A DNA stretch of 64,000 bases from Acholeplasmataceae bacterium (GTDB lineage: Bacteria > Bacillota_I > Bacilli_A > Acholeplasmatales > Acholeplasmataceae), in assembly GCA_036584525.1 (NCBI GenBank), contig JAZHDG010000035.1, positions 4,839-68,838 on the forward strand, written 5' to 3'. Below, one piece after another: positions 23,935-63,100 of the stretch (position 1 is its first letter; every line of letters begins with the position of its first letter). Below the pieces are notes generated by a model. That model had not been told where the DNA came from and searched no databases. It worked only from the letters and a program-made list of their open reading frames with translations. Made by a program: the position numbers and the translations under genes.

Positions 23935-26859
23935 ATGAATCAAACAAAAACACTTAGGAAAATGGCAATATTTGTGCTAATAATTGCTGGAATCCTTACA
24001 TTGAGTGCTTGTAGCAACAGCAGCAAAACACCTTATGGAGATTTATCTGATGATGCCTACGTCACACTTGATGGCATAACTATTACTGAAAAAGAGCTTT
24101 ACGATCAACTACGTTTACAAAGCGCTTCTGCCTTGTCTTCAATGATCGATAATATTGTTTTTGCAGAAAACATCACAGACGTTAAAGCGTTACTTTCAAG
24201 TGGTAACGAAGATCTGAACACTTATTTTGATGAAACAATCAATTCAAGTATTCACAATATTAGTGACCTCGAAGATCTCAAAGAATTCTTTGAAACCGAT
24301 TATGATCAATTTTATCGTAATGTAGAACGCTTTGCGGATTCACAATATTTACTTGATAATACTTTAAACATTCAAACAGTTATTGATAGTATTATGAGCC
24401 TTCCTGTTCCGTATGAAGGTTATGCATCATTAAGTTTCTTAGTTAACAATTACGCTATTCGCGCTGCACAACGTGAATATGCTAAAGAATTATTGGCAAC
24501 TCAAGTAACTGATGAAGATGACAAAAACTATATTAGTGAACAATCACTTGTTACATACTATAAAAACAATAAAGAAGGTCGCTATGACGTTGATGCTTTA
24601 GTTGTTCGTTTTATCAACCTAAATGAAGCAAATGCTGCGATGTATCATCAAAGTATTAAAGCAGATGCGAAAGGTGCTTGGTATAAAATCCCAGATATTC
24701 GTATTGCTAAGGGTGAAGTTGGTTATGTCAATTTAAGTGCCACATCTGATTCTACTGAGCCAGTGAACGCATACGTCGTTTCTATATTGCAAGATCTTGA
24801 TTTATTAGATAAACTTGGTGAAAACTATGAAAATCGTAGTGCACTAAGCCGTGAAGATTTTGAAAATTATTATAAAAAATATTCAATTAATACGAGTCGT
24901 GATTTAAACCGTGATGTTGCATTAACAACTTCACAAGTTAAAGAAGCGTTTGTAAGCATTTATAATTTATTAAATCCAACCGCTCAAGTTCAAATTTCTG
25001 GTTCTACAATCATTGGAAAGGGTGATACTTCTTACAGCCCAACTCTTACTTATGATGAACTTACCAAAGTTAACACTAGTTTAAGATCTCATATCTATAC
25101 AACACTAGTTTCTGAATCTTCCATGGAAGACCCTAACGACACAACAGACGGTCAACCTTATTCTTCTCGTTTCACTCAATTCGGTTCACCTTATTATTTA
25201 GTGTTTAAATTAAATGATGGTAAAGCTGCTGAAGAAGGTGTACTCGTTGAAGACCCTGAAGATGCTGAAAAAGAAATATTCTCATCTTCTGCATCAGCTA
25301 TTCGTGAAGAAATGTATGATCTTCTACTTGAAAGTAAATTAACTTCCGCTTATATTAGTGAAGTTGTTACTCAATTATATGAAGAAGTTGAAATCGATAT
25401 TTTCGATCCAATCGTTAGAATCCTTTATGAACAAAATTATGGATATAACGGAACAACTGACAACAAGAGTGGCGATATTGTCGCAACAGTTGATGGTACA
25501 GAAATTACAGTTGCAGACTTCTATGCACGTCTTGAAAAATCTTATGGTATTAATATAGCTCTAGACGTACTTTCAAACGAATTTTTAGTAAGTTCTGAAA
25601 AATATACGATTACTGAAGAAGATCGCGAAAGTTATCAAACACAATTTGAAGATATTATTTCACAATTCTCAGCAAACAACTTTGCATCAGCTGGCTTCCC
25701 AGCGACTATGGGACGTGAAAAATTCTTACTTCTTGCATTCGGTTCAAGAACAAATCAAGAAGCAATCAATCAAATTTATGTGTATCCTGAATTACGTGAC
25801 CAATACTTAAAAGACTATGAAGTTCATTATGGCGAAGATGTTTATGAAAAATTCTCTGAACTTGCTAAACTTCAATATGATAATTACAAATCAATGAATG
25901 TATCCCATTTACTTATCTATGTTGATCAAAATGGTGATGGTTCTCCAGATAACCCACAAGATTATTTAGATACTCTTGATGCTATTGGCCAACAAGCAGT
26001 ATTAGAAGGGCTTGTTGATTTAGTAGAAATTTTATATGACAAAATTGGTTACTATTCATCATTTGCAAACGGATTCCAAACATTAGTTACCGAATTTAAT
26101 AATTCAGGACGCATTATGCGTGGTAATGATATTCCCCCTGTTGGACCAAATGATCCAAAACTTGATTATCAACCAGAATTAACATGGGCAAGATTCCGTC
26201 AATTAGGTTTCTACCTCAAGTTTGAAAACTTATCATCACCTATTACAAACACATCAAACTTAATTTCATCTCAACAACGTTTAGATGAAGTATTCTACAC
26301 TCGTGCGATGTCAATGTATAATCCTGATGCGACTCTTCCTCTTCTTGATTTATATGATAGCGTCATTACCCAAGATGAACTTTCGAATGTTAAATCATCA
26401 TTCGGTTGGCACTTAATTTTAAATACTTCAGTATCTGAAAGTGGCAGCGTCATGTACTTACAATCTTCAGATTCTGAAGGTAAATATATTTCAAGTAGTG
26501 ATGAAACATTAAACTTCTATAATTCAACTACTGATTGGGTGAGTCCAAACCAAGTGAAATTCTACTTAATTGAAAGCAATTCAGATGAAGGTATAACATT
26601 ACCAACATCAGTTCAAACAGCATTCAATACACAATTTTCACCAGTTTTAACACGTTATCAAGGCACTTATATGCAACGTGAATTAGTCTTCAAACTTATT
26701 GAAGATGCAGCATTTAGTGGAAACCAAAGCGCTAGATTTAATGTGATTAGAGAAATTAATCGTCGTCAAATGAATGAATATATGCTTTCAGCAGATGGTT
26801 TATATGACAACAATTATGCATCACTCTATGTAAATTGGTTCAATATCTTAGAAGGATAA
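23935..26859 (+). CDS. Giant (974 aa) lipoprotein made of two PrsA/SurA-like foldase modules with parvulin-like motifs
   Basis: Lipobox LTLSAC (Cys26). Two PrsA-type N-terminal segments: VTLDGITITEKELYDQL at aa ~43 and ATVDGTEITVADFYARL at aa ~517. Parvulin-like VSHLLIY (aa ~656) and FGWHLIL (aa ~823). Confidence 0.6.
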   Translation: MNQTKTLRKMAIFVLIIAGILTLSACSNSSKTPYGDLSDDAYVTLDGITITEKELYDQLRLQSASALSSMIDNIVFAENITDVKALLSSGNEDLNTYFDETINSSIHNISDLEDLKEFFETDYDQFYRNVERFADSQYLLDNTLNIQTVIDSIMSLPVPYEGYASLSFLVNNYAIRAAQREYAKELLATQVTDEDDKNYISEQSLVTYYKNNKEGRYDVDALVVRFINLNEANAAMYHQSIKADAKGAWYKIPDIRIAKGEVGYVNLSATSDSTEPVNAYVVSILQDLDLLDKLGENYENRSALSREDFENYYKKYSINTSRDLNRDVALTTSQVKEAFVSIYNLLNPTAQVQISGSTIIGKGDTSYSPTLTYDELTKVNTSLRSHIYTTLVSESSMEDPNDTTDGQPYSSRFTQFGSPYYLVFKLNDGKAAEEGVLVEDPEDAEKEIFSSSASAIREEMYDLLLESKLTSAYISEVVTQLYEEVEIDIFDPIVRILYEQNYGYNGTTDNKSGDIVATVDGTEITVADFYARLEKSYGINIALDVLSNEFLVSSEKYTITEEDRESYQTQFEDIISQFSANNFASAGFPATMGREKFLLLAFGSRTNQEAINQIYVYPELRDQYLKDYEVHYGEDVYEKFSELAKLQYDNYKSMNVSHLLIYVDQNGDGSPDNPQDYLDTLDAIGQQAVLEGLVDLVEILYDKIGYYSSFANGFQTLVTEFNNSGRIMRGNDIPPVGPNDPKLDYQPELTWARFRQLGFYLKFENLSSPITNTSNLISSQQRLDEVFYTRAMSMYNPDATLPLLDLYDSVITQDELSNVKSSFGWHLILNTSVSESGSVMYLQSSDSEGKYISSSDETLNFYNSTTDWVSPNQVKFYLIESNSDEGITLPTSVQTAFNTQFSPVLTRYQGTYMQRELVFKLIEDAAFSGNQSARFNVIREINRRQMNEYMLSADGLYDNNYASLYVNWFNILEG

Positions 26860-44961: not shown

Positions 44962-45405
44962 CTACTTTTCTATAATATGTACTTCAAATTGTGCTTTTAT
45001 ATCTTTATGGAGTTGAACGGTTGCAGTGTAAATGCCAACAGAGTTGATATCACTTGATAATTCAACTTTTTTCTTATCGATTAAAATATGGTGATCCTGT
45101 TCAAATTGTTCAACAATCTGCTTAGTCGTCACGTGACCAAATAATTTCCCGTCTTGTCCAATCTGAATTCCAAGCGTTATTTTCTTTCCATCAATTTCTG
45201 CTTTTAGTTTGCGCATTAATTCTAAATGACGTTCTATTTCTTGTTTTTCTTCTTCTTTTTGTTGTTTTAAAGCTTCTAAGTTTTCATCAGATGCCATCAT
45301 TGCCTTTTTTTGTGTCACAAGATATTGACCAAAACCAGCAGCAACATCCAAAATATCATCTTTTTTCCCACGGCCTTTAACATCTTCTAATAAAATGATT
45401 TTCAT
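44962..45405 (-). CDS. rplI: 50S ribosomal protein L9, as an internal-initiation product of the fused frame
   Basis: 147 aa with a canonical L9 N-terminus. The strong SD GGAGGAGAAGGGG ends 5 nt before ATG 45405-45403. Confidence 0.75.
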   Translation of the reverse strand: MKIILLEDVKGRGKKDDILDVAAGFGQYLVTQKKAMMASDENLEALKQQKEEEKQEIERHLELMRKLKAEIDGKKITLGIQIGQDGKLFGHVTTKQIVEQFEQDHHILIDKKKVELSSDINSVGIYTATVQLHKDIKAQFEVHIIEK

Positions 45406-47397
45406 GATTTCCCCTTCTCCTCCATATTCTAAATCAATAATTTTTTTCAATTCATCTTGGACTTCATGAATTGATTTTTGTTTAATTTGTGCGGCAGCAC
45501 TATTTAAATGACCACCGCCACCGATGGTTTCCATAATGACTTGGACATTGATTTTCTGATATGATCTTGCAGAAACCGATACCGTTTCAGCATCAGTTCT
45601 GGCAATCACAAAAGACGCATCAATACCACTAATCATAAGTGCAGCATCAGCAACCTGAGCAAGTAAAACTCGATCTTCATAAACCTCAGACGTTACAACA
45701 AATGCGAAACGATCTAAATAAATATCCACTTGACTTAAGAGTTGATTAATCTCCATCGTGCGCATGAGATCTCTTCTTAGCCATAGTTTAACTTCTGTGA
45801 TATCTGCTCCTAAATCTCTCAATTGAGATGCAACATCAAATGTTCGAGCACTTGTTCGATAACTAAAATTGTTGGTGTCAACAATCAATCCTGCATACAT
45901 CACACTGGCTTCAAGTGGTGTAATTTTAAATTCTTCTAGTGCTGTATAAAAAGACATAATGTCCGTTAATAATTCAATAGTTGAAGATGCATAGGGTTCG
46001 TTAATTGAGAACATTGCATTAAACGTTTCTTCACCAATACGATGATGATCAATCACAATGACTTTATTAGCTTTTTCTAGTAGTTGAGGACTCATCACAA
46101 TTTTGGGTGATTGTGAATCAATAACGACAAGCATACATTCAGGCATAATTTGTCGATATGCGATATCCGAAGTAATAATACTTTCTTTTATTTGTGGATC
46201 TTTTTCAATCACAATGTCATATACTTTTTTAGTCGTTGGATCTAATTTGTCCTCATCCATTACCATGAATACAGGTTTTTTAGATGCTTTTCCAAGATGA
46301 TAAACTGCAAGAAGTGATGCGAAAACATCTAAATCGGCATGCATATGTCCCATAACGAATATGGAAGATGAGCGATCGAACAAATCAGCAATCGTTTGGG
46401 CATTAATTCGTACACCTACTTTAGAACTTTTGGCAGACGCATCATTCTTCGCACCAAAATATTGGATTTTTTGATCTTGAACGTTAACTACGACCTGGTC
46501 TCCACCTCTTTTTTCAGCGAGTTCAACTGCATTTTGTGCATAAATACCTAAGTCTTCATAATCAATGTCCCAAGAAGCTACACCCATTGAAATACTGACT
46601 CTCGTTTTGTTTTGAGTTGAGATAAGTCGAATTTTATCTAAAATATCAAACTTATCTTGAATCATTCTCACGAGTTGTTCACGATATAAAACAACTAATA
46701 ATCTTTCATCCGAATAAGGTTTTAAAAATCCATCATAACGATTTGCCCAATCAGCAATCGCAGCTAAATATTCACCTTTGAGTGAAGATTGTTCTGAAAC
46801 ATCAAATTGCGATAAGGATTCATCAAAATTATCAAGATAAATTATCCCTAAAGCTGGAATACGATTGTGATATTGTAGTTTAATTTTTTCTCTTTCGGTA
46901 ATATTGAAAAGGTAAAAGAATTTGTATTCTGGTCGATACAAAACGTCATATGTCTCTTGTTTAACCAAAATAGTGAAGCTTAGCATATTATCCATGATGT
47001 TCTTATGGAGTTCTACATGCACATCTTCTAAATCTTTCCCTGTAATTTTTGGATCAAAAATTGATTTAGCATGTGGATTTGCCCATTTAATTTCGTATTC
47101 ATCATCCATTGCGATTATCCCAATAGGTAATTCATTGAAAACTTCATCGCCCACTTGATTCACATGGTATGACAATTTCGTCCACATAGAAAGTCGGTTT
47201 TGTAATGTTTTGACCTTTTGACGTTCTTGTAAGTGGAAAGTAATATAGATCGTCACAAAAACAAGCACAAAACTACTCATTAAAAATACAAATTTGAGTA
47301 ATTGATCTAGTGTATCAAATTGAAAATATGGGATGTATAAATAAATACCTGATGCAAAAATTAAAATGGCCATCACAAAAAAAATCCATCGTTTCAT
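44962..47397 (-). CDS. gdpP: GdpP-like c-di-AMP phosphodiesterase (2 TM, PAS-like, degenerate GGDEF, DHH/DHHA1) fused in frame to ribosomal protein L9
   Basis: A single 811-codon frame. It contains the DHH motif VIDHHR and the DHHA1 motif GGGGH, then ...LEYGGEGEI runs directly into MKIILLEDVKGRGKK (L9) with no stop. Start is ATG 47397, after AGGTGG. Confidence 0.8.
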   Translation of the reverse strand: MKRWIFFVMAILIFASGIYLYIPYFQFDTLDQLLKFVFLMSSFVLVFVTIYITFHLQERQKVKTLQNRLSMWTKLSYHVNQVGDEVFNELPIGIIAMDDEYEIKWANPHAKSIFDPKITGKDLEDVHVELHKNIMDNMLSFTILVKQETYDVLYRPEYKFFYLFNITEREKIKLQYHNRIPALGIIYLDNFDESLSQFDVSEQSSLKGEYLAAIADWANRYDGFLKPYSDERLLVVLYREQLVRMIQDKFDILDKIRLISTQNKTRVSISMGVASWDIDYEDLGIYAQNAVELAEKRGGDQVVVNVQDQKIQYFGAKNDASAKSSKVGVRINAQTIADLFDRSSSIFVMGHMHADLDVFASLLAVYHLGKASKKPVFMVMDEDKLDPTTKKVYDIVIEKDPQIKESIITSDIAYRQIMPECMLVVIDSQSPKIVMSPQLLEKANKVIVIDHHRIGEETFNAMFSINEPYASSTIELLTDIMSFYTALEEFKITPLEASVMYAGLIVDTNNFSYRTSARTFDVASQLRDLGADITEVKLWLRRDLMRTMEINQLLSQVDIYLDRFAFVVTSEVYEDRVLLAQVADAALMISGIDASFVIARTDAETVSVSARSYQKINVQVIMETIGGGGHLNSAAAQIKQKSIHEVQDELKKIIDLEYGGEGEIMKIILLEDVKGRGKKDDILDVAAGFGQYLVTQKKAMMASDENLEALKQQKEEEKQEIERHLELMRKLKAEIDGKKITLGIQIGQDGKLFGHVTTKQIVEQFEQDHHILIDKKKVELSSDINSVGIYTATVQLHKDIKAQFEVHIIEK

Positions 47398-47471
47398 AGG
47401 AACCACCTACTTTAAAGATATTATACCAATAATAAAAGCCCATTTCAATTTAATTCGATATACATAGAAAT

Positions 47472-54418: not shown

Positions 54419-54889
54419 CTACCAGCGATAGTGAGCAAATGCTTTATTTGCTTCAGCCATGCGGTGTACATCTTCGCGTTTCTTCACGGCTGCACCTAAA
54501 CCTTGTGATGCATCAATGATTTCTTTCGCTAATCTTTCTTCCATAGTTTTCTCATTACGCAAACGTGCGTAATTGATTAACCATCTTAATCCTAATGTTG
54601 TTTTTCTTGAAGCTCTAACTTCAGTTGGTACTTGGTAGTTTTGACCACCAATACGACGAGAACGAACTTCTAAAACGGGCATAATGTTGTTAAGTGCTTC
54701 ATTGAACACATCAATTGGCTCACGACCTGTGGCTTCCTTGACGCGGTTGAACGCACCATATAAAATTGATTGAGCAGTACCTTTTTTACCATCAAGCATA
54801 ATTGTATTAACAATACGCGTAACAAGTTTTGAATGATAAATTGGATCTGGTAAAACGTCGCGTTTTACAACATGTCCTTTACGTGGCAT
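54419..54889 (-). CDS. rpsG: 30S ribosomal protein S7
   Basis: [18 protein letters not shown]... Confidence 0.98.
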
Positions 54890-54932
54890 GAGTTCACCTT
54901 CTTCCTTTCGATTAATAATGAATTAGTTTATA

Positions 54933-55373
54933 TTATTTTTTCCCTGCTGTTTTAGCTGCAGTAGCCTTTGGACGCTTAGCGCCATATTTTGAACGTGCTT
55001 GTTTGCGGTTTGCAACGCCTGATGCGTCTAGCGTACCACGTACAATGTGGTAACGTACTCCTGGAAGGTCCTTAACACGACCACCACGAATCAATACCAC
55101 GCTGTGCTCTTGCAAAGAGTGACCAATACCTGGAATGTAAGCAGTAACTTCAGTTTGGTTACTTAAACGAACACGGGCATACTTACGTAAAGCAGAGTTA
55201 GGTTTCTTTGGTGTCATGGTTGTAACACGCGTACATACTCCACGTTTTTGTGGGGATGTATAATCACTTTCACTCTTTTGTAGACTGTTAAATCCATAAC
55301 CTAGAGCTGGTGATTTTGATTTGTACTTTTTGTCTGTTCTACCATTTTTTACGAGTTGCGAAATAGTTGGCAT
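54933..55373 (-). CDS. rpsL: 30S ribosomal protein S12
   Basis: [12 protein letters not shown]...[16 protein letters not shown]. Start is ATG 55373, after AAAGGAG. The track ORF is over-extended to 55523. There is a short Lys/Ala-rich C-terminal extension. Confidence 0.98.
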
Positions 55374-55425
55374 TTGTAGATCTCCTTTCTTCAAACACAT
55401 ATCCAAGTGTTTCATATTTTGTTTT

Positions 55426-55457
55426 AAAAAATATTTACGGCTTAATTGAGCCGTAAA
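55426..55457 (-). promoter_or_regulatory. Terminator-like hairpin inside the rpsL 5' UTR (possible attenuator)
   Basis: Minus strand TTTACGGCT-caatta-AGCCGTAAA (9 bp) followed by TATTTTTT, located between the promoter and the SD. Confidence 0.4.
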
Positions 55458-55494
55458 CTCAATACACATAGCGTGCATTTCACGCAGCGTTTTA

Positions 55495-55523
55495 ATTATA
55501 TAATAGTTTAGAAATAAAGTCAA
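55495..55523 (-). promoter_or_regulatory. str operon promoter
   Basis: TTGACT (55523-55518), exactly 17 nt, TATAAT (55500-55495). Confidence 0.7.
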
Positions 55524-55544
55524 CTTTTTTAATTAAATTTCTAT

Positions 55545-55568
55545 AAAAAAAGATGTCAATTGACATCT
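55545..55568 (-). terminator. Intrinsic terminator after the FNT-like gene
   Basis: AGATGTCAATTGACATCT palindrome followed by TTTTTTT on the minus strand. Confidence 0.85.
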
Positions 55569-55574
55569 AAACTT

Positions 55575-56198
55575 TTATGCTTTAGTAAGGTTTAATTTTT
55601 CTTCAACTAAATTTAGTGCTACTGCACCGATTAAATTCCCTAAAATCCATAGAATAACGTAAAGAATAGTTTGAAAAGTAAACGACCTTGCCAAGACAAC
55701 ATAAAGTAAGTTTGCAATACTATGTTCAAATCCGGCTAATATAAAGATCATCACTGCAAGTATAACGATTAACACTTTAATGATCGGATTTTCAATAGAT
55801 TTATAGCCATGAACCCCAGTATACATGAGCATCCCACAAAAGATTGCAAGAATAAGTGTTTGTAATGGTCCAAACGTGAGTTTCGCTATCATGATTTGTT
55901 CGCTTAATTGAACGACTTCAGTTTTTCCTGTAAATAAGAATAAAACACCTACCAATGCGATTCCAACAAAATTACCTAAAATCGTTAATAAAATCATTCT
56001 GATGAACCCTTTTTGATAGGGGAGCAAATACCCGATTTTCCCAGTGTATAGAAAGTATCCTTTTGCTACTACCATCAATAAACCGGTACTAAATAAAAAT
56101 GAACCGACAATTTTATTGCTCACTGATAGATAAACAAGGCCTGCAATACCTATATATAAACCTGCCATTATGGCTTTTAAGAAAATGCGTTCTTTCAT
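55575..56198 (-). CDS. Short formate/nitrite transporter (FNT) family membrane protein
   Basis: GFEHSIANL signature and FLYTGK (in place of LFTGN). ~207 aa. The preferred start is ATG 56198, 1 nt after the SDR stop (SD AAGGAAAG). Confidence 0.7.
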   Translation of the reverse strand: MKERIFLKAIMAGLYIGIAGLVYLSVSNKIVGSFLFSTGLLMVVAKGYFLYTGKIGYLLPYQKGFIRMILLTILGNFVGIALVGVLFLFTGKTEVVQLSEQIMIAKLTFGPLQTLILAIFCGMLMYTGVHGYKSIENPIIKVLIVILAVMIFILAGFEHSIANLLYVVLARSFTFQTILYVILWILGNLIGAVALNLVEEKLNLTKA

Positions 56199-56199
56199 T

Positions 56200-57006
56200 T
56201 TATTTCTTTCCTTTTTTAAACCCATAAATTTTACCAACCACTTGATTCGTAAAACCTCTTGGTAATAATTTTTCTAAACACACAAAAATTTTATATTTAA
56301 ACCCAATGGTTTTATATAAAGGCATTTTTTTCTTTTTAATCAGTTTTCCAATGACTTTAGCTAAAACTTCAGGATCCATACCATTTTGTTCATCTTTTTC
56401 CATAACAGCAACTGATTTATCAATGCGATTTTCATAATTTGGATTTATGATTTCGTTTTTACGTCTGTTTTTCGTAAAACTCGTTTTGATATCTCCAGGC
56501 ATAATCACACAAACATCAATGCCAAAGGGTTCAACTTCATTGGCTAATGCATTTGAAAAAGCATTAATCGCAGCTTTAGAACTACTATAAAACGATTGGA
56601 AAGGAATCGATAAAACACTGGCAACTGAACTAATATTAATGATTTTTCCGTGCTTTCCTTCCCTCATAAAGGGTAGTACAACTTTTGTTGAATGAAAAAC
56701 ACCCACGAAATTCACATGGAATAAATCTAATACATCTTCAGTTAATGTATCTTCAATACTTCCGGAAATCCCAATGCCTGCATTATTGATTAAGACATCG
56801 ATTCTTCCTTCAATATCATAAATTTCTTGATAGGCTTCAATCATTTGATCAAAATTTGTGACATCTGCTTGGATACTTCTAACATTTTTCTCATGTGTTT
56901 TACTTCGAGAAATTCCATACACATGATGCCCTTGATCGGCTAAATATTTAGAAACAGTTAGTCCTATACCAGAAGATGCTCCAGTTACAATAATTACTTT
57001 TTCCAT
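56200..57006 (-). CDS. Classical short-chain dehydrogenase/reductase (candidate 3-keto-long-chain-base reductase)
   Basis: TGASSGIG, NNAG and the S...YSSSK catalytic triad. Amphipathic Lys-rich C-terminus. Its start overlaps the upstream stop (TAATG). Confidence 0.6.
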   Translation of the reverse strand: MEKVIIVTGASSGIGLTVSKYLADQGHHVYGISRSKTHEKNVRSIQADVTNFDQMIEAYQEIYDIEGRIDVLINNAGIGISGSIEDTLTEDVLDLFHVNFVGVFHSTKVVLPFMREGKHGKIINISSVASVLSIPFQSFYSSSKAAINAFSNALANEVEPFGIDVCVIMPGDIKTSFTKNRRKNEIINPNYENRIDKSVAVMEKDEQNGMDPEVLAKVIGKLIKKKKMPLYKTIGFKYKIFVCLEKLLPRGFTNQVVGKIYGFKKGKK

Positions 57007-58193
57007 TACTCATTAAATCCTTCTAAGCTTTTTAGAACTTCACTAATACGTTCAATAGCTTGGTCGATTTGTTCTTTCGTATGTGTTGCTGTATAACTCG
57101 TACGAATCAAGCATTCACCGATAGGTGTTGCCGGTGGAATAACTGGATTCACATATACACCTTGTTCAAATAATTTATTACATGCGACCATCGTGCGCAT
57201 CGGCATATAAGTATAAATGGGGATAATGGGTGTTTTAGAATCTTTGATTTTTAGCCCCTTAGCTTTTAATCCCTGACGCATATATTCTGAAATGTCATGA
57301 AGTGCTTTAACACGTTCAGGTTCGCGTTTTAAAATTCTTAAGGCTTGGAGTGCTGCAGCAGCATTAGATGCTGGAATTGCTGCAGAAAATATATAAGGTC
57401 TTGAATTATGACGAATATAATCGACAACTTCATGACTAGCTGCAACATAACCACCTAAACTTGCAAGTGATTTAGAAAATGTTCCCATAATAATATCTAC
57501 TTCGTTTTCAAGCCCAAAATGTTCAGCTGTGCCTCGCCCACATTCACCCATTACGCCTAAACCATGGGCATCATCGACCATCACACGTGCACCATATTTT
57601 TTGGCAAGTGCAACAATTTCTGGAAGTTTAGCAATTTCACCGCTCATTGAAAAAACACCATCAGTGATGATTAATTTCCCTTTGTTTTCTGAAGCTTTAG
57701 CAAGCTTTTCTTCTAAATCATTCATATCTGAATGTTCAAAACGAACAACCTCTGCATAACTTAATCTTGTACCATCATAGATGGATGCATGATTTTCTTT
57801 GTCAGAAAAAATAATATCATTTCTTCCGGCAACAGCTGAAATAATACCGAGATTACTTTGAAATCCTGTACTAAAGATTGTACAATCTTCTTTGTTTAAA
57901 AACTCAGCAAGTTCAGCTTCAAATTGCTTATGCAAATTGAGTGTACCGTTTAAAAACCGGGATCCAGAAACCCCAGTACCATATTTTAATGTCGCGTCAA
58001 CAGCAGCTTGAATAACTTCAGGATGAGAAGTTAATCCGAGATAGTTATTAGAACCAATCATGATGACTTCTCTACCTTCCATGTGAACTACTGTATCTTG
58101 TTTACTCGTAAGTTCATGAAAGTAAGGATAATATCCTGCTTCTTTTGCTTTTTTCGCTGTATCATATGCGTAAATTTTCTTAAATAAATCCAT
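57006..58193 (-). CDS. PLP-dependent alpha-oxoamine synthase, serine palmitoyltransferase-like
   Basis: Motifs GSRFLNGT, HASIYDG, DDAHG, GTFSKS (PLP Lys), RPYIFSAA and YVNPVIPPATP...LIRTS. From memory these match Sphingomonas SPT (GSRMLNGT, GTFSKS, RPYIFTAS, RPPATP) better than KBL (VRFICGT, GTLGKA) or BioF. Confidence 0.6.
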   Translation of the reverse strand: MDLFKKIYAYDTAKKAKEAGYYPYFHELTSKQDTVVHMEGREVIMIGSNNYLGLTSHPEVIQAAVDATLKYGTGVSGSRFLNGTLNLHKQFEAELAEFLNKEDCTIFSTGFQSNLGIISAVAGRNDIIFSDKENHASIYDGTRLSYAEVVRFEHSDMNDLEEKLAKASENKGKLIITDGVFSMSGEIAKLPEIVALAKKYGARVMVDDAHGLGVMGECGRGTAEHFGLENEVDIIMGTFSKSLASLGGYVAASHEVVDYIRHNSRPYIFSAAIPASNAAAALQALRILKREPERVKALHDISEYMRQGLKAKGLKIKDSKTPIIPIYTYMPMRTMVACNKLFEQGVYVNPVIPPATPIGECLIRTSYTATHTKEQIDQAIERISEVLKSLEGFNE

Positions 58194-58285
58194 GTCTATT
58201 CCTCATTTCAAAAAACGCCTAAATCTATTATAATACACAACCAATGATTTTGGCCAATAAAAACGACAAAACATTAAGGTGACAT

Positions 58286-58308
58286 AAAAAAAGGATATTA
58301 AATATCCT
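58286..58308 (-). terminator. Intrinsic terminator after psuG
   Basis: AGGATATTTAATATCCT palindrome with the psuG TAA in the loop, then TTTTTTT. Confidence 0.8.
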
Positions 58309-59233
58309 CTTTTTTAGACGTTTTATATTTTTCATATTCGACTGCAATCTTTGATGCAATCAAAGCGTTGCTATAGACTAATTCAAGATTTGCATCAAGA
58401 CTTTGACCTTCAGTTAAATCTTTTATTTTAGCTAACAAAAATGGTGTGGTCTCTTTTCCATAAATTCCTTTTTCTTTCGCTTCTTGAAGGGCTTTTTCAA
58501 TCATTTTTTCGATATCTTTTCGATTCATCGAGTATTCTTCGGGTATTGGATTCGCAATCAATACACCACCTTTTAAACCAATATTCCATTTTGCGTGCAT
58601 CAGAGCGGCAATGTCTTTTGCATCTTTCATCAAATAATCTAATTCTAGACCACTATCTTTCGTGTAAAACGCTGGTAGTTCTTTGGTTTGATATCCCAAT
58701 ACTTCAACGCCTTTTGTTTCTAAATATTCAAGGGTTAATTTTAAATCTAAAATTGCTTTAGCACCAGCACAAATTACGGCAACATTAATCTCTGAAAGTT
58801 CTTCTAAATCTCTTGAAATATCAAAAGTAATTTGACCTTCTCGATGGACCCCACCAATGCCGCCAGTCGCAAATATTTTAATACCCGCCATATTCGCAGC
58901 TAACATCGTCCCAGAAACAGTCGTTGCACCATCTCTTTTTTGAGATAAAACGTAACCAAAGTCTCTTTTACTCACTTTAATCACATCTTTGGCTTGTGCT
59001 AGATATTCAATTTCATCATCAGTTAAACCAATTTTAATAACACCGTGTATAATAGCAATCGTTGCAGGAATCGCACCTTCATTTCGTATAATTGATTCAA
59101 CTTTTTTTGCCATCTTGACATTTTCAGGATATGGCATACCGTGTGTAATAATAGTTGATTCAAGTGCAACTACTGGTTGATGTTGGGCTAATGCTTTTTT
59201 TACATCCGGATGTATTTCAATATAATTCATCAT
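58298..59233 (-). CDS. psuG: Pseudouridine-5'-phosphate glycosidase
   Basis: IndA family: VALESTIITHGMPYP, GGIGGVHR. 311 aa. Confidence 0.9.
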   Translation of the reverse strand: MMNYIEIHPDVKKALAQHQPVVALESTIITHGMPYPENVKMAKKVESIIRNEGAIPATIAIIHGVIKIGLTDDEIEYLAQAKDVIKVSKRDFGYVLSQKRDGATTVSGTMLAANMAGIKIFATGGIGGVHREGQITFDISRDLEELSEINVAVICAGAKAILDLKLTLEYLETKGVEVLGYQTKELPAFYTKDSGLELDYLMKDAKDIAALMHAKWNIGLKGGVLIANPIPEEYSMNRKDIEKMIEKALQEAKEKGIYGKETTPFLLAKIKDLTEGQSLDANLELVYSNALIASKIAVEYEKYKTSKKEDI

Positions 59234-60128
59234 AGTTTTCCTCCATCATTTTTAATAAATGTTGTTTATTCATTTCTTTTGATACAGCATCTTCACTTTG
59301 AAGATTGATTGCTGCTGCAGCTAAACCAGCTTTTACTGGATCAAGATCATGCATTTTCGCATAAATAACACCTGCAAAAAAAGCATCACCTGCACCAGTT
59401 GTGTTTTTGATGATTGTATGAATTGGTTTCATTAATTCTTTTTTATCTTTTGTTTGATAAAACACGCCTTCGCTACCTAAAGTAATCATCACTTCTGAAA
59501 CACCTTGTTGAATAAAATAGTGACCCAAATCATCCAGAGTCTTACCATCGGCAATCCGATAACCAGAAATTGCTTCTGCTTCGATTAAATTCATTTTTAA
59601 AAAATGGATATATTGGAGGTGATGTTGAATACGCATCGCTTTTTGACTTGATATTGTATCAACAAAAACAGGAACTTTCGCGGTTTGAAAAATATAATTA
59701 AGTGTTTCTTCAGACATATTGGTATCAACTACAATTAAATCTGCAGGTGAAATGAACACATCTCTTGATGCTAAAGCTTCTTTATTCATCTTTTCAATTT
59801 CATCCATTAAGGCGACGCTGACTAAATCTTCACCGCTTTCATGAATCACTGAAATATATAAAGGCGTTTCATTGACTTCTATATAATTAATACACATCCC
59901 CAAATCACGGGCATGCTCATAAATCTCTTGACCCCAAAGGTCTTTACCTAATACTGTAATTAAAGTCGTATCAACACCACATCGAACTAAATTTTCAGCA
60001 ATATTTCGACCTACACCACCAAAAGACCTTTTCATATAACCTGGATTTGAATCATGTAGTTTCATTTTTTGATGTGGATATAAAAATAGATCAATGACTG
60101 CTCCACCGATAACTACTACTTTTTTCAT
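59217..60128 (-). CDS. psuK: PfkB-family carbohydrate kinase, pseudouridine kinase-like
   Basis: VIGGAVID and NTTGAGDAFFAG motifs. Overlaps psuG by 17 nt. Start is ATG 60128, after AAGGTGA. Confidence 0.8.
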   Translation of the reverse strand: MKKVVVIGGAVIDLFLYPHQKMKLHDSNPGYMKRSFGGVGRNIAENLVRCGVDTTLITVLGKDLWGQEIYEHARDLGMCINYIEVNETPLYISVIHESGEDLVSVALMDEIEKMNKEALASRDVFISPADLIVVDTNMSEETLNYIFQTAKVPVFVDTISSQKAMRIQHHLQYIHFLKMNLIEAEAISGYRIADGKTLDDLGHYFIQQGVSEVMITLGSEGVFYQTKDKKELMKPIHTIIKNTTGAGDAFFAGVIYAKMHDLDPVKAGLAAAAINLQSEDAVSKEMNKQHLLKMMEENYDELY

Positions 60129-60159
60129 AGAAATCACCTTCTTATCTCTATTTTAGCAT

Positions 60160-60192
60160 AAAAAACCGCTATCCTTTTTCTGGATAACGGTT
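60160..60192 (-). terminator. Intrinsic terminator after rpoC
   Basis: AACCGTTATCC...GGATAGCGGTT imperfect stem followed by TTTTTT on the minus strand. Confidence 0.7.
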
Positions 60193-60197
60193 TAATA

Positions 60198-63100
60198 TTA
60201 AAATTCTAATTCTTCCTCTTCGGTATACGTATTTCCACGATCATAATTAAATAATGATTCTCTTAGAATACCTGTACCTGCTGGAATGAGTCCACCAATG
60301 ATGACATTTTCTTTAAGTCCATGGAGTTCATCCGTTTTACCTTTAATTGCAGCATCCGTTAAGATACGTGTTGTTTCTTGGAAAGATGCAGCTGACAAGA
60401 ATGAATCACTGCGTAGAGATGCTCTTGTAATACCTAATAGAATTGGTCTTCCAACTGCAGGACGTTTGAATTCACTAAATGCTTTCTTATTGGCGCGTTT
60501 GAATTCAGAAACAGACACTTCAGTACCTGGAAGTAATTCGGTATCGCCTTCGGTAACAATCGAAATTCGACGCAACATTTGACGAATGATTAATTCGATA
60601 TGTTTATCACTAATTTCTACACCTTGTGCACGATAAACTTTTTGAACTTCTTCTAGGATATACATTTCAGCGGCTTCAGCAGAAACAACTCTAAGTAATT
60701 CTTTAGGACTAATAGAACCTGGTGTAAGTCTTTGACCAGCTTTCACTGAAGAACCTTTTCTAACAAAAGCTTCGATATTTGGATCTACAGTGTATTTATA
60801 TTCTTTATCTTGTGCATCGACGACGGTAATAATTGAAATACCACCACGTTGACGATCAATCGATTTAACTTTACCATCAACTTCACTAATGACCGCTTTA
60901 CCTTTTGGATTACGGGCTTCGAAAAGTTCTTGAATACGTGGAAGACCTTGTGTAATGTCAGATGCTGATGCAACCCCACCAGTATGGAAGGTTCTCATGG
61001 TTAACTGAGTACCAGGTTCACCAATTGATTGAGCAGCTACAACACCAACGGCTTCACCGACTTCAACTCTCGTGTTCGTTGCTAAGTTTCTACCATAGCA
61101 CTTCGCACATACACCATTTTCTGAATTACATGTGAGGTTACTACGGATTTCAACGCTCTTGATTTCAGCGTTAATGATTTGATGGCCAATTTCTTCAGTA
61201 ATAAGTTCATTACGATGAACTAAAACTGCTTTTGTTTTTGGATGTGTAACATCTTTACTTGCATAACGACCAACGATACGATCATATAATGGAACGATTT
61301 CTTTGGTGTCATCCATAACAGAAGACATCACAACACCTTTTTCAGTACCACAATCTTCATCAACCACAATGACATCTTGGCTAACGTCAACTAAACGACG
61401 TGTTAAGTATCCAGATTCAGCAGTTTTTAACGCTGTATCTGTAGAACCTTTGCGGGCACCATGGGTTGAAATAAAGAACTCTGACACGGTTAAACCTTCT
61501 CTAAATGATGCTTGTACTGGAACTTCAATTGTTTCACCCTTAGGGTTACTCATGAGTCCACGCATACCAGCAAGCTGTGCGAAGTTTGATGCATTACCAC
61601 GGGCACCAGAATCTGACATCATATAAATATTATTATCTTTATCAAACTCTTCCATTAAGCCTTTTTGGATATCATCACGTGCTTCACGCCATTGTTTAAT
61701 AACGAGTTCACGACGTTCGCTATCGGTTAACATACCATCTTCATACCAAGATGTAATTTCTTCAATGTTTTGATTTGTTAATTCGATACGTTCAGCCTTT
61801 TTAGAATACACATTAATATCAGCAAACGATACGGTAATACCGGCGACTGTTGAATATTTGAATCCTAAATCTTTTAAGCGGTCAAGCATCTTCGATGTTT
61901 CACTTATATGTAATTGCTTAAAGACTTGTGCAATAATTTGTGATAAGAATTTCTTTTTAAAAGGTCCTGGAATTGGAATGTGTTTTAATGCTTCTTTTGG
62001 ATTTTGACCTTTCGCCATAAAATAGATATCTGGTGTTTGTTTTTCTAAGTTTTCAACAGTAGGTTCATTTAAGTAAGGGAATGTTGGCGGTAGAATACGA
62101 TTGAAAATGAGCTTACCTAATGTTGTCACTAAATATTTATTTTGTTGTGTTTCAGAGAAATTTTGATGGATTGATTTTGGTTCAATTAAAATACGTGTGT
62201 GTAATCCAATTTCACCTTGTTGATATGCCATGTAAGCTTCATCAAAACTGATGAAGAAATGACCTTCATTACGATGCTTAATTTGGTGTTCTTTTTGGCG
62301 TTCTTCTGAGCGATAACCACCAAGTGTACGATGTAATGATTCTTCAATCGTTAAATAATAGTTTCCTAAAACCATATCTTGAGATGGTGTAACAACTGGC
62401 TTACCATCTTTAGGGTTAAGAATGTTATTAGAAGCAAGCATTAAGAGTCTAGCTTCAGCTTGTGCTTCGTGAGAAAGTGGAACGTGGACAGCCATTTGGT
62501 CACCATCAAAATCCGCGTTAAACGCTGGGGTAACAAGTGGATGTAGACGAATCGCTTTACCATCAATCAATTTAGGTTCAAATGCTTGAATACCAAGTCT
62601 ATGAAGTGTTGGTGCACGGTTTAGTAATACTGGATGTTCTTTCACAACCTTTTCTAAAGCTGCCCAAACATCATCATCCATCTTTTCGTATTTACTATTT
62701 GCATTTTTCTTAGCATTAGCATCATTTCCAGAAAGCTTTTGAAGTTCTCTTAAGACGAATGGCTTGAATAAAATAATGGCCATTTCTCTTGGGATACCAC
62801 ATTGATACATTTCTAAGTCTGGCCCAACAATAATTACGGAACGTCCTGAATAATCAACACGTTTACCAAGTAAGTTTTGTCTAAAGCGGCCTTGCTTACC
62901 ACGTAACATATCGGATAATGATTTTAAGTGACGGTTACGCTCAACGGCTGCTTTTTTGCCACGTTTTGCATTATCAAATAAAGCATCAACAGCTTCTTGA
63001 AGCATACGTTTTTCATTTTTTGTAATCAAACGTGGTGCCATTTGTTCTTTTTGCTTCTTCAAACGGTTATTACGGTTAAGAATACGACGATAAAGATCAT

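Follow-up and report, generated by a model that had tools for sequence, protein, structure and literature searches.

The 64,000-nucleotide stretch of contig JAZHDG010000035.1 analysed here (the window) comes from an Acholeplasmataceae metagenome-assembled genome (MAG) and carries three co-directional minus-strand genes, bracketed by two hairpin terminators, which encode an α-oxoamine synthase (AOS), a classical short-chain dehydrogenase/reductase (SDR) and a short channel of the formate–nitrite transporter (FNT) family. Comparison with curated families, solved structures and related loci indicates that the AOS and the SDR are likely to form a biosynthetic module for a long-chain base of the sphinganine type, in which the AOS would act as a serine palmitoyltransferase (SPT) and the SDR as a 3-ketodihydrosphingosine reductase (KDSR). 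The operon would cover the first half of a sphingolipid pathway, up to the free long-chain base. The chemistry is familiar; what is new is the phylum, the translationally coupled SPT–KDSR operon and the unexplained FNT partner.

The genetics of sphingolipid synthesis in bacteria has been worked out for Bacteroidetes and Proteobacteria. Around 1970, chemical work on Acholeplasma axanthum reportedly established sphingolipids in a mollicute, and to our knowledge no genes have ever been assigned to them. A full-text search of a literature collection returned no gene-level report of sphingolipid synthesis in Mollicutes or Clostridia, which agrees with the first-pass annotation of this DNA, an earlier note that knew of no such description in low-GC Firmicutes or Mollicutes. 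The locus represents the first gene-level, two-gene candidate for mollicute sphingolipids, a lipid observation now 50 years old.

The condensing enzyme

The AOS contains the motifs GSRFLNGT (residues 77–84), GTFSKS (237–242), RPYIFSAA (265–272), PPATP (353–357) and LIR (362–364). From this set the first-pass annotation had proposed an SPT-like enzyme and not a glycine C-acetyltransferase (KBL) or an 8-amino-7-oxononanoate synthase (BioF), and the profile comparisons bear the proposal out. The protein matches Pfam Aminotran_1_2 (PF00155) with 216 bits, far over the gathering score, and SPT of the CFB type (NF047600) is the top of 22 NCBIfam families by 115 bits (Table 1). The best solved structure is the SPT from Sphingobacterium multivorum (SmSPT). 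In a trimmed alignment the AOS shares 49% identity with SmSPT, 42% with the SPT from Sphingomonas wittichii (SwSPT), 41% with the Thermus AOS, 37% with Escherichia coli Kbl and 32% with E. coli BioF; SmSPT and SwSPT, both proven SPTs, are merely 37% identical to each other. The cut-offs of both KBL models and of BioF are missed, as Table 1 indicates. Judged by sequence, the AOS is clearly nearest to SPT and lies outside the curated equivalog.

Table 1. Bit scores of the window AOS against NCBIfam families and structures in the Protein Data Bank (PDB)
Family or structure	Score (bits)	Cut-off or remark
NCBIfam SPT, CFB type (NF047600)	542.8	cut-off 640
NCBIfam SPT, β-proteobacterial type	427.8	cut-off 500
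NCBIfam KBL (NF005394)	422.8	cut-off 460
NCBIfam BioF/Kbl-related (TIGR01825)	414.7	cut-off 535.4
NCBIfam BioF (TIGR00858)	405.6	cut-off 426.45
NCBIfam KBL (TIGR01822)	352.2	cut-off 493
NCBIfam ALAS	280	cut-off 338.55
NCBIfam CqsA-type	230	cut-off 428
PDB SmSPT (3A2B/8GUH)	416	best, >110 bits clear
PDB SwSPT (α-proteobacterial)	302	
PDB Thermus KBL/BioF-type AOS	293	
PDB Coxiella KBL	290	
PDB cysteate acyltransferases	269, 253	147–163 under SmSPT

In the high-resolution complex of SmSPT with serine, the site for the pyridoxal 5'-phosphate (PLP) cofactor and serine includes Asn52, Gly80, Ser81, Phe83, Leu84, His138, Ser185, Asp210, Ala212, His213, Thr241, Ser243, Lys244 and Phe272 (PMC10196870). 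All 14 of these residues are identical in the window AOS, where the numbering is offset by −3. Across the 74-member clade to which this AOS belongs, 12 of them show no variation; for Ala212 and Phe272, 73 of the 74 members retain the residue in each case. Met271 of SmSPT, which makes a main-chain carbonyl contact, is Ile in the window AOS. The residues found in the SPT state are Asn49, Gly77, Ser78, Phe80, Leu81, Asn82, His135, Ser182, Asp207, His210, Thr238, Ser240, Lys241, Ala271 and Arg364, and the PLP-binding, catalytic and serine-contacting residues, together with the Arg of the LIR motif, are invariant in 74 of 74 members.

Some of these positions discriminate between families. Residues 77–78 are Gly-Ser in the window AOS, Ala-Val in the Thermus AOS and Ser-Val in Kbl; residues 80–82 are Phe-Leu-Asn, compared with Thr-Ile-Ala in the Thermus AOS, Phe-Ile-Cys in Kbl and His-Val-Ser in BioF; and residue 271 is Ala, where the Thermus AOS and BioF have Thr and Kbl has Asn. 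All 74 clade members are in the SPT state at these positions, and at residues 78, 81, 82 and 271 the window AOS is unlike E. coli Kbl. Position 271 also corresponds to Lys281 of SulA, a marker of cysteate acyltransferases (CFAT) that is Ala in SPTs (PMC9304779). The Ala is invariant in the clade, and the 150 nearest representatives of clusters at 50% identity have no Lys at this position. Together with the PDB scores (269 and 253 bits versus 416 bits for SmSPT), this speaks against membership in the CFAT/SulA group.

The residue preceding PPATP is Ile in the window AOS and Ile, Leu or Val in the clade. The first-pass annotation had named Arg as the residue here in Sphingomonas SPT and had suggested that the amino-acid substrate may not be serine. 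Arg occurs at this position only in the α-proteobacterial SPT type; SmSPT has Val, so the Ile is uninformative and says nothing against a serine substrate.

The reductase

The SDR matches Pfam adh_short with 173 bits, far over the gathering score, and has the motifs TGASSGIG (from residue 8), NNAG (74), YSSSK (140) and PGDIKT (170). The catalytic set of a classical SDR is present as Ser126/127 and Tyr140-x3-Lys144. Its best match among 226 NCBIfam families is the KdsR equivalog (NF049977), with 268.2 bits over profile positions 3–266 of 267, while the next-best family scores 207.9 bits, 60 bits behind. This is consistent with the earlier suggestion that the SDR is of the type that would reduce a 3-keto long-chain base. 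BT_0972, the validated Bacteroides enzyme, converts 3-ketodihydrosphingosine (3-KDS) to sphinganine (PMC9278070). The AOS-adjacent SDRs from Izemoplasmatales, Christensenella, Clostridiaceae and Oscillospiraceae MAGs likewise have KdsR as their best family, with scores of 229–299 bits.

The basic, amphipathic C-terminal tail described in the first-pass annotation was confirmed (...KLLPRGFTNQVVGKIYGFKKGKK). The same tail (G-F-x-Y-K...L-P-x-x-F-V-N...K-x-Y) is found in AOS-linked SDRs of other lineages, and since the SDR and the KdsR profile align end to end, the basic amphipathic C-terminus belongs to the family. None of the solved structures is close; an uncharacterised dehydrogenase, at 107 bits, is the best match in the PDB. 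The window SDR is not of the CerR type, a type of extended SDR from the epimerase family.

Linkage of the two genes and related loci

The stop codon of the AOS gene overlaps the start codon of the SDR gene at the junction GAGTAATGGAA (TAATG), also written GAGTAATGG. At the SDR/FNT junction, AAATAAAATGAAA (TAAAATG), the FNT start lies 4 nt past the SDR stop. The first-pass annotation had described three coupled genes between their own terminators, and the open reading frames (ORFs), both junctions and both hairpins were all found in place.

We compared 80 related loci from one-genome-per-species contigs, of which 67 had enough flanking sequence to judge. An SDR of the same family lies immediately beside the AOS in 39 of the 67, a genomic coupling of the reductase with an SPT-type gene. 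This adjacency spans Acholeplasmataceae, Izemoplasmatales, Bacilli, Christensenellaceae, Oscillospiraceae and Clostridiaceae and occurs in three arrangements: the AOS gene first, in which case the two genes often overlap or lie 3–5 nt apart, the SDR gene first (e.g. L026, L031 and L038) and the two genes divergent (L072, L073 and L075). No further neighbour is conserved across lineages besides the SDR. Retention of the adjacency despite rearrangement in different classes is strong evidence for joint action of the two enzymes.

The closest non-Firmicutes AOS proteins (54–56% identity) come from WOR-3, δ-proteobacterial and Nitrospirota MAGs (L077–L079), in which the neighbours are a 377-residue GNAT, an NAD-dependent epimerase-family reductase and a PAP2_3 protein. 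No NCBIfam model names this GNAT, and the single, weak NCBIfam match of the PAP2_3 protein is phosphoinositol dihydroceramide synthase. The gene set matches the spt/bcerS/cerR set of PMC11087976, and such ceramide-type clusters embed the AOS lineage among sphingolipid contexts. With L080, these loci make up the non-Firmicutes outgroup, which accounts for four of the evaluable loci without an adjacent SDR.

Among cultured organisms, Mariniplasma anaerobium (L083, AP024412.1: 307510–324139) has psuK-psuG-AOS-SDR-FNT-rpsL in an order identical to that of the window, and Peloplasma aerotolerans M4Ah (L019) has AOS-SDR without the FNT gene. A database protein with 100% identity bears an Acholeplasmataceae name, and the locus of Acholeplasmataceae bacterium UBA6181 is 98% identical. 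The clostridial AOS branch is large, with at least 120 clusters (90% identity) that are at least 80% identical to one Christensenella-type member (P0391–P0510); among the MAGs from which these come, some bear the label Christensenellales. A search from the Christensenella-type homologue gave no named cultured Clostridium with an AOS, the matches listed being MAG proteins only. MAGs from the human gut (Hadza, Nepal, UMGS) and the mouse gut are among the sources of the related loci (L036, L038, L048–L051 and L055). Public annotations of these proteins read 'aminotransferase family protein', '8-amino-7-oxononanoate synthase' (JGI) and 'SDR oxidoreductase'.

Two further arrangements were seen among the related loci. 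In a second Acholeplasmataceae lineage (L030:4132–7976, L033 and L034) the gene order is patatin - PAP2 - AOS - SDR, and the patatin-like phospholipase and the PAP2 phosphatase/transferase are candidates for downstream head-group or remodelling genes. In four Izemoplasmatales loci (L023:6237–7157, L024, L027 and L039) a SerA-like D-2-hydroxyacid dehydrogenase lies past the SDR position; in L023 no SDR was detected beside the AOS. The dehydrogenase resembles phosphoglycerate dehydrogenase, with a score under the cut-off (TIGR01327, 155 bits), and may serve in the supply of serine.

Phylogeny of the AOS

An initial neighbour-joining tree comprised 216 taxa: the window AOS, the AOS from 76 related loci, 135 representatives and five references, namely SmSPT, SwSPT and the Thermus AOS (from PDB alignments) and Kbl and BioF of E. 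coli (from the K-12 genome). Support for the Firmicutes/Mollicutes clade in this tree is about 80%. A second neighbour-joining tree, calculated for a 38-taxon subset with 500 bootstraps, was used in its place. Here, the core clade of Acholeplasmataceae, Izemoplasmatales, Bacilli and Clostridia has 100% bootstrap support, and there is 83% support for a split between SPT-type sequences (the window clade, SmSPT and its relatives, L077–L080 and SwSPT) and the three other references, the Thermus AOS, Kbl and BioF. The window AOS groups with proven SPTs, and there is no robust grouping with KBL or BioF, so that the phylogenetic check proposed in the first-pass annotation came out in favour of SPT; the order inside the SPT-type group is not resolved by this tree. 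The reference enzymes in the trees were SmSPT, SwSPT, the Thermus AOS, Kbl and BioF; CFAT/SulA was judged by PDB bit scores and the Lys281 marker.

Weight of the evidence

A number of observations weigh against the assignment of the pair as SPT and KDSR. Neither enzyme reaches the cut-off of its best equivalog (542.8 versus 640 bits for the AOS with NF047600, and 268.2 versus 400 bits for the SDR with NF049977), and the nearest AOS representatives also fall under the former cut-off, at 422–625 bits; with both enzymes under the NCBI trusted cut-offs, they are a sister lineage and not certified members. The 49% identity to the nearest proven SPT has to be set against 41% to the KBL/BioF-type AOS from Thermus. 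In the 216-taxon tree the backbone bootstrap is 0% and deep AOS nodes are poorly resolved, and in the 38-taxon tree a CFB-like group excluding the α-proteobacterial SPT has just 62% support. The adjacent SDR is absent from 24 of 63 evaluable Firmicutes loci, and the FNT gene is without a rationale in any known sphingolipid pathway. A tblastn search of the 64-kb window with the GNAT, epimerase-family and PAP2 proteins from L077–L079 and L030 as queries (E <= 0.01) gave no match. Finally, the amino-acid and acyl substrates of the AOS are predicted from homology.

The search result agrees with the first-pass annotation, which saw no ceramide synthase, and the spt-bcerS-cerR cluster of the Caulobacter type does not occur within the window. 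The only lipid-related proteins that a Pfam scan recognised among ten unassigned window ORFs are PlsX and DegV.

We considered whether the pair might carry out the same condensation and ketoreduction on other substrates, yielding in place of sphinganine, for instance, alanine-derived 1-deoxysphinganine, a base made from glycine or a sulfonolipid base that resembles capnine. Such a role would be in keeping with the scores under the SPT and KdsR cut-offs, with an AOS clade that is separate, has 100% support and shares about 49% identity with the closest proven SPT, and with the unexplained anion channel that is apparently co-transcribed with the pair; bacterial SPTs are also known to accept Ala and Gly at low efficiency (PMC10196870). 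We nevertheless regard it as quite unlikely: every serine- and PLP-contacting residue of the SmSPT–serine complex is retained, the cysteate-specific Lys is replaced by Ala271 in all 74 clade members, the cysteate acyltransferase structures trail SmSPT by 147–163 bits and the position at which Ile stands for Arg is Val in a genuine SPT. It is very improbable that the AOS is a KBL or BioF, with the SDR and FNT genes as unrelated neighbours or with the trio serving amino-acid or organic-acid catabolism, as the JGI annotation of the AOS family, the KBL and BioF scores not far under their cut-offs (423 versus 460 and 406 versus 426 bits) and the carriage of small organic anions by FNT channels might suggest, given that both scores are 120–137 bits under that for SPT-CFB and reach neither cut-off, that Ser78, Phe80-Leu81-Asn82 and Ala271 are in the SPT state, unlike E. 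coli Kbl, the Thermus AOS and BioF, that the tree splits these three enzymes from the SPT type at 83%, that no tdh or bioA/B/D gene is adjacent, that a KdsR-like SDR is the sole partner retained from phylum to phylum and that the outgroup AOS relatives lie in ceramide-type clusters.

Proposed pathway

In our view, the most consistent interpretation is that of an SPT–KDSR pair, and on this basis the following steps can be proposed. The AOS would, by homology, act as a soluble homodimeric SPT in which L-serine forms an external aldimine at Lys241. Decarboxylative Claisen condensation of L-serine with a C16–C18 acyl thioester would then give 3-KDS and CO2. Acyl-ACP (acyl carrier protein) is the probable donor of the acyl chain, because mollicutes activate fatty acids by the FakB/PlsX route and PlsX and DegV are encoded in the window. 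In the second step the SDR, using Ser126/127, Tyr140 and Lys144, would reduce the C3 ketone of 3-KDS to give sphinganine; Arg34 suggests a preference for NADPH, and the conserved amphipathic basic C-terminus may hold the enzyme at the membrane, where the product would partition. A third step, for which an N-acyltransferase and head-group enzymes would have to be encoded elsewhere in the genome, would lead to a (phospho)ceramide. The FNT protein would be a compact anion channel, apparently co-transcribed in the window lineage and outside the conserved core.

The sphingolipid of A. axanthum is said to contain amide-linked D-3-hydroxyhexadecanoate, in work ascribed to Plackett et al. (1970) and Mayberry et al. 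(1973). Peloplasma aerotolerans M4Ah, which has the AOS-SDR pair, contains 3-OH C16:0 and 3-OH C18:0 fatty acids (PMC11122141), and a review names 'Mycoplasma' among sphingolipid producers (PMC8366399). The co-occurrence of the pair with 3-hydroxy fatty acids in Peloplasma gives circumstantial support to a ceramide product, and the entry in the review gives support of the same circumstantial kind to the module. Separately, 3-hydroxy fatty acids of these lengths are unusual for a wall-less monoderm.

A broader reading, which we offer tentatively and consider rather unlikely, is that a deep, Firmicutes-wide SPT and KdsR-like lineage makes sphingoid lipids without an outer membrane, using a non-homologous N-acyltransferase and accessories dedicated to serine and one-carbon (C1) supply. 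Besides Acholeplasmataceae, Izemoplasmatales and Bacilli, the lineage in question would take in many Christensenellales and Oscillospiraceae that are uncultured, gut MAGs among them. As the pair is not accompanied by a homologue of bCerS or CerS, ceramide formation would need an N-acyltransferase unrelated to these. If this were true, it would amount to a further independent origin of ceramide synthesis, and the short FNT and the Izemoplasmatales SerA-like dehydrogenase would be dedicated serine/C1-supply components.

The FNT gene

The FNT protein matches Pfam Form_Nir_trans (PF01226) with 100.1 bits (gathering score 34.6) over profile positions 15–233 of 240, and it keeps the pore Thr (LYTG) and His (GFEHSIAN), which align with LFTS and GFEHSIAN of FocA. 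Scores against the FocA, NirC and FocB equivalogs are 69.8, 27.6 and 23.2 bits, compared with cut-offs of 290, 293 and 499, and solved FNT structures score merely 25–36 bits. The longest ORF is 55575–56237, starting from a TTG at 56237.

This subfamily of about 205 residues is essentially confined to Mariniplasma/Peloplasma-like relatives within the Acholeplasmataceae. The FNT gene lies directly past the SDR gene in 14–16 of the closest 20 loci and in four of five FNT-centred look-ups, including that of Mariniplasma anaerobium. In one lineage GntR regulators and a GGDEF protein flank the FNT triad where psuG and rpsL would otherwise stand. L014, Peloplasma aerotolerans (L019) and all AOS-SDR loci outside the window lineage lack the FNT gene. 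The place of the FNT gene in the operon is as given in the first-pass annotation, but the gene does not belong to the module in general: it occurs only in this group, and one homologue is located away from any AOS-SDR pair. We regard it as a lineage-specific addition, probably co-transcribed with the conserved core and not part of it.

We doubt that the FNT is a functional accessory of the pathway, for example by formate import into the C1 pool and, by way of serine hydroxymethyltransferase, into serine for SPT. In mechanistic terms, formate could conceivably reach serine through methylene-THF. The tight 4-nt spacing behind the SDR gene would fit such a role, as would the integrity of the AOS-SDR-FNT triad while its flanks switch between psuG...rpsL and GntR...GGDEF, the near restriction of the short FNT subfamily to genomes with the AOS-SDR module and the occurrence in Izemoplasmatales of another possible serine-supply gene, the SerA-like dehydrogenase, in the post-SDR place. 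However, AOS-SDR loci outside the lineage, and L014 and L019 within it, do without the FNT, a 54%-identical homologue (L089) has no AOS or SDR gene nearby, no known sphingolipid pathway uses an FNT and the whole rpoC–rpsL gap looks like a slot in which accessory genes gather.

The L089 homologue (L089:1872–5648) is a short FNT that follows a PfkB kinase, an inosine-uridine nucleoside hydrolase and an ADP-ribosylglycohydrolase. A PfkB kinase and a nucleoside-cleaving enzyme are thus upstream of the FNT both there and in the window (psuK and psuG), which may be coincidence.

Comparison with known systems

The closest known system is the initiation of sphingolipid synthesis in Bacteroidetes (SmSPT or Bacteroides SPT with BT_0972), which provides the best-scoring family for both window enzymes and, in SmSPT, the top match among solved structures. 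The two systems have the same active-site residues, the SPT is soluble and of about 395 residues, the SDR of about 267 residues aligns end to end including the tail, and the predicted order of reactions is eukaryote-like, with 3-KDS reduced ahead of acylation. The window pair differs in its 49% identity to SmSPT, in scoring under both cut-offs and in forming its own Firmicutes/Mollicutes lineage with 100% support. The two genes of the window overlap within a single operon; in Bacteroides the locus tags (the SPT we take to be BT_0870, the KDSR being BT_0972) point to separate loci. In addition, the window host is a wall-less or monoderm organism with no outer membrane, and an FNT gene is attached to the pair.

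A bacterial ceramide pathway of the Caulobacter type was reportedly described by Stankeviciute et al. in 2022. It involves spt, bcerS (a GNAT), cerR, an ACP and an acyl-ACP synthetase (PMC11087976), and shares the SPT condensation as its first step. The nearest non-Firmicutes AOS relatives (L077–L079) occur in clusters of this kind, in the order epimerase - AOS - GNAT - PAP2. The window has no homologue of GNAT/bCerS, CerR, ACP or PAP2, and its reductase is a classical KdsR-type SDR and not an extended NDUFA9-like SDR, which points to reduction in the cytoplasm at the stage of the free base and not to reduction of an oxidised ceramide in the periplasm.

The initiation of sulfonolipid (capnine) synthesis by SulA/CFAT (7U7H, 28EH; PMC9304779) and 3-ketocapnine reductase (PMC11211663) uses the same AOS fold and likewise consists of condensation followed by SDR ketoreduction, with acyl-ACP as the likely acyl donor in both cases. 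It is set apart from the window pair by Lys281, which is Ala271 in the window, by the PDB scores (253–269 versus 416 bits) and by the absence of a cysteate synthase gene near the window operon. KBL–TDH (E. coli kbl-tdh) and BioF belong with the window AOS to the α-oxoamine synthase superfamily and share the catalytic set of PLP Lys, His and Asp, but the low identities (37% for E. coli Kbl, 32% for E. coli BioF), the scores under the cut-offs, the 83% split in the tree, the discriminating residues and the lack of tdh and bioA/B/D distinguish the window enzyme from both.

In relation to the FocA/NirC/HSC family (PF01226; 3KLY, 3KCU, 3TDS and 4FC4), the window FNT has a near full-length domain and the pore Thr and His. 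It is shorter because loops are deleted (207 residues, compared with 255–285 for solved members), and it represents a lineage-restricted subfamily.

Implications

The presence of the pair in cultured Mariniplasma anaerobium and Peloplasma aerotolerans M4Ah makes the prediction directly testable. The module extends to many uncultured Clostridia, including Christensenellales MAGs, which hints at widespread synthesis of sphingoid lipids. If it is active in gut Clostridia, the assumption that gut bacterial sphingolipids come from Bacteroidetes only will need revision; if the prediction fails, the clade would represent a new substrate specificity within the α-oxoamine synthases.

Operon boundaries and neighbouring genes

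The gene order is rpoC - psuK - psuG - [AOS - SDR - FNT] - rpsL - rpsG - fusA - tuf (Table 2). No tdh or bio genes are adjacent to the operon, as the first-pass annotation had remarked, and inspection of the window ORFs, mostly by eye and for ten of them with Pfam, revealed no bioA, bioB or bioD in the 64 kb.

Table 2. Coordinates of the operon, its boundary elements and neighbouring genes, with the outgroup clusters
Feature	Position	Strand	Description
psuK	59217–60137	−	PfkB family (PF00294), closest to pseudouridine kinase
psuG	58298–59233	−	PF04227, Indigoidine_A / pseudouridine-5'-phosphate glycosidase family
Upstream hairpin	58286–58314	−	A/U-rich, directly past psuG stop, AAAAAAGAGGAUAU-UUA-AUAUCCUUUUUUU
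Promoter-like site	58227–58256	−	TGGCCA-18-TATAAT; consensus scan, 10/12 matches
AOS	57006–58193	−	395 aa, PLP-dependent, predicted SPT
Classical SDR	56200–57006	−	268 aa, predicted NADPH-dependent 3-ketodihydrosphingosine reductase
Short FNT channel	55575–56198	−	207 aa from ATG at 56198, = NCBI protein P0271
Downstream intrinsic terminator	55544–55568	−	hairpin 55568–55551 AGATGTCAATTGACATCT then T7; ends operon
rpsL promoter-like site	55523–55495	−	TTGACT-17-TATAAT; promoter scan, directly past operon terminator
Epimerase-family reductase - AOS - 377-aa GNAT - PAP2_3	L077:3552–5869, L078:4928–10637, L079:207–3948		second GNAT in L078

The upstream hairpin (58314–58286) has a folding energy of −11.4 kcal/mol and z = −3.96, with none of 200 shuffles as stable. 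It was not called by the consensus terminator scan, which needs at least three G-C pairs. It is likely to be the terminator of psuK-psuG and the upstream limit of the operon. The promoter-like site at 58227–58256 lies about 35 nt ahead of the AOS start. It was identified solely by its match to the consensus, and promoter-like sites in the region are, in total, no more numerous than expected from shuffles. An AGGA ribosome-binding site precedes the AOS ATG at 58193. The downstream terminator was called by the terminator scan (−10.5 kcal/mol, z = −2.6). An Rfam scan of 54800–60300 for riboswitches or leaders gave nothing meaningful, the lone sub-threshold snoRNA match looking like chance. The G+C content of the operon equals that of the window (0.34), and the G+C and GC3 values of the three genes match those of their neighbours, giving no compositional sign of recent horizontal acquisition.

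The psuK product matches the NCBIfam pseudouridine kinase with 184 bits, under the cut-off. psuK-psuG lies upstream of the AOS gene in about 16 related loci and is missing from others that keep AOS-SDR-FNT. We considered psuK-psuG as part of the lipid module and rejected it, as AOS-SDR-FNT persists without the two genes and they have a hairpin terminator of their own. More generally, the rpoC–rpsL gap acts like a variable accessory slot in Acholeplasmataceae (window 58298–60137; L002–L020 and L084–L086), in which psuK-psuG, a GntR regulator pair, a small GNAT and GGDEF and NERD genes vary while AOS-SDR(-FNT) persists.

Downstream of the operon, the rpsL leader (55374–55523, minus strand) contains two terminator-like hairpins (55485–55471 and 55458–55433) between the promoter-like site and the rpsL ATG (55373). 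These could be an attenuator or a ribosomal-protein leader; the leader has no Rfam match.

Other features of the window

Two further ORFs lie elsewhere in the window. At 23935–26859, on the plus (minority) strand, a 974-residue ORF with a lipoprotein-like N-terminus (...LTLSACSNSS...) has no Pfam match. At 44962–47406, on the minus strand, an 814-residue ORF joins a GdpP-type cyclic di-AMP phosphodiesterase (PAS, GGDEF, DHH and DHHA1 domains) in frame to ribosomal protein L9. There is no stop codon between the two parts, and the L9 Met, near 45405, has a GGAGGAG ribosome-binding site ahead of it; the ORF may represent either a real fusion or read-through, or internal initiation of L9.

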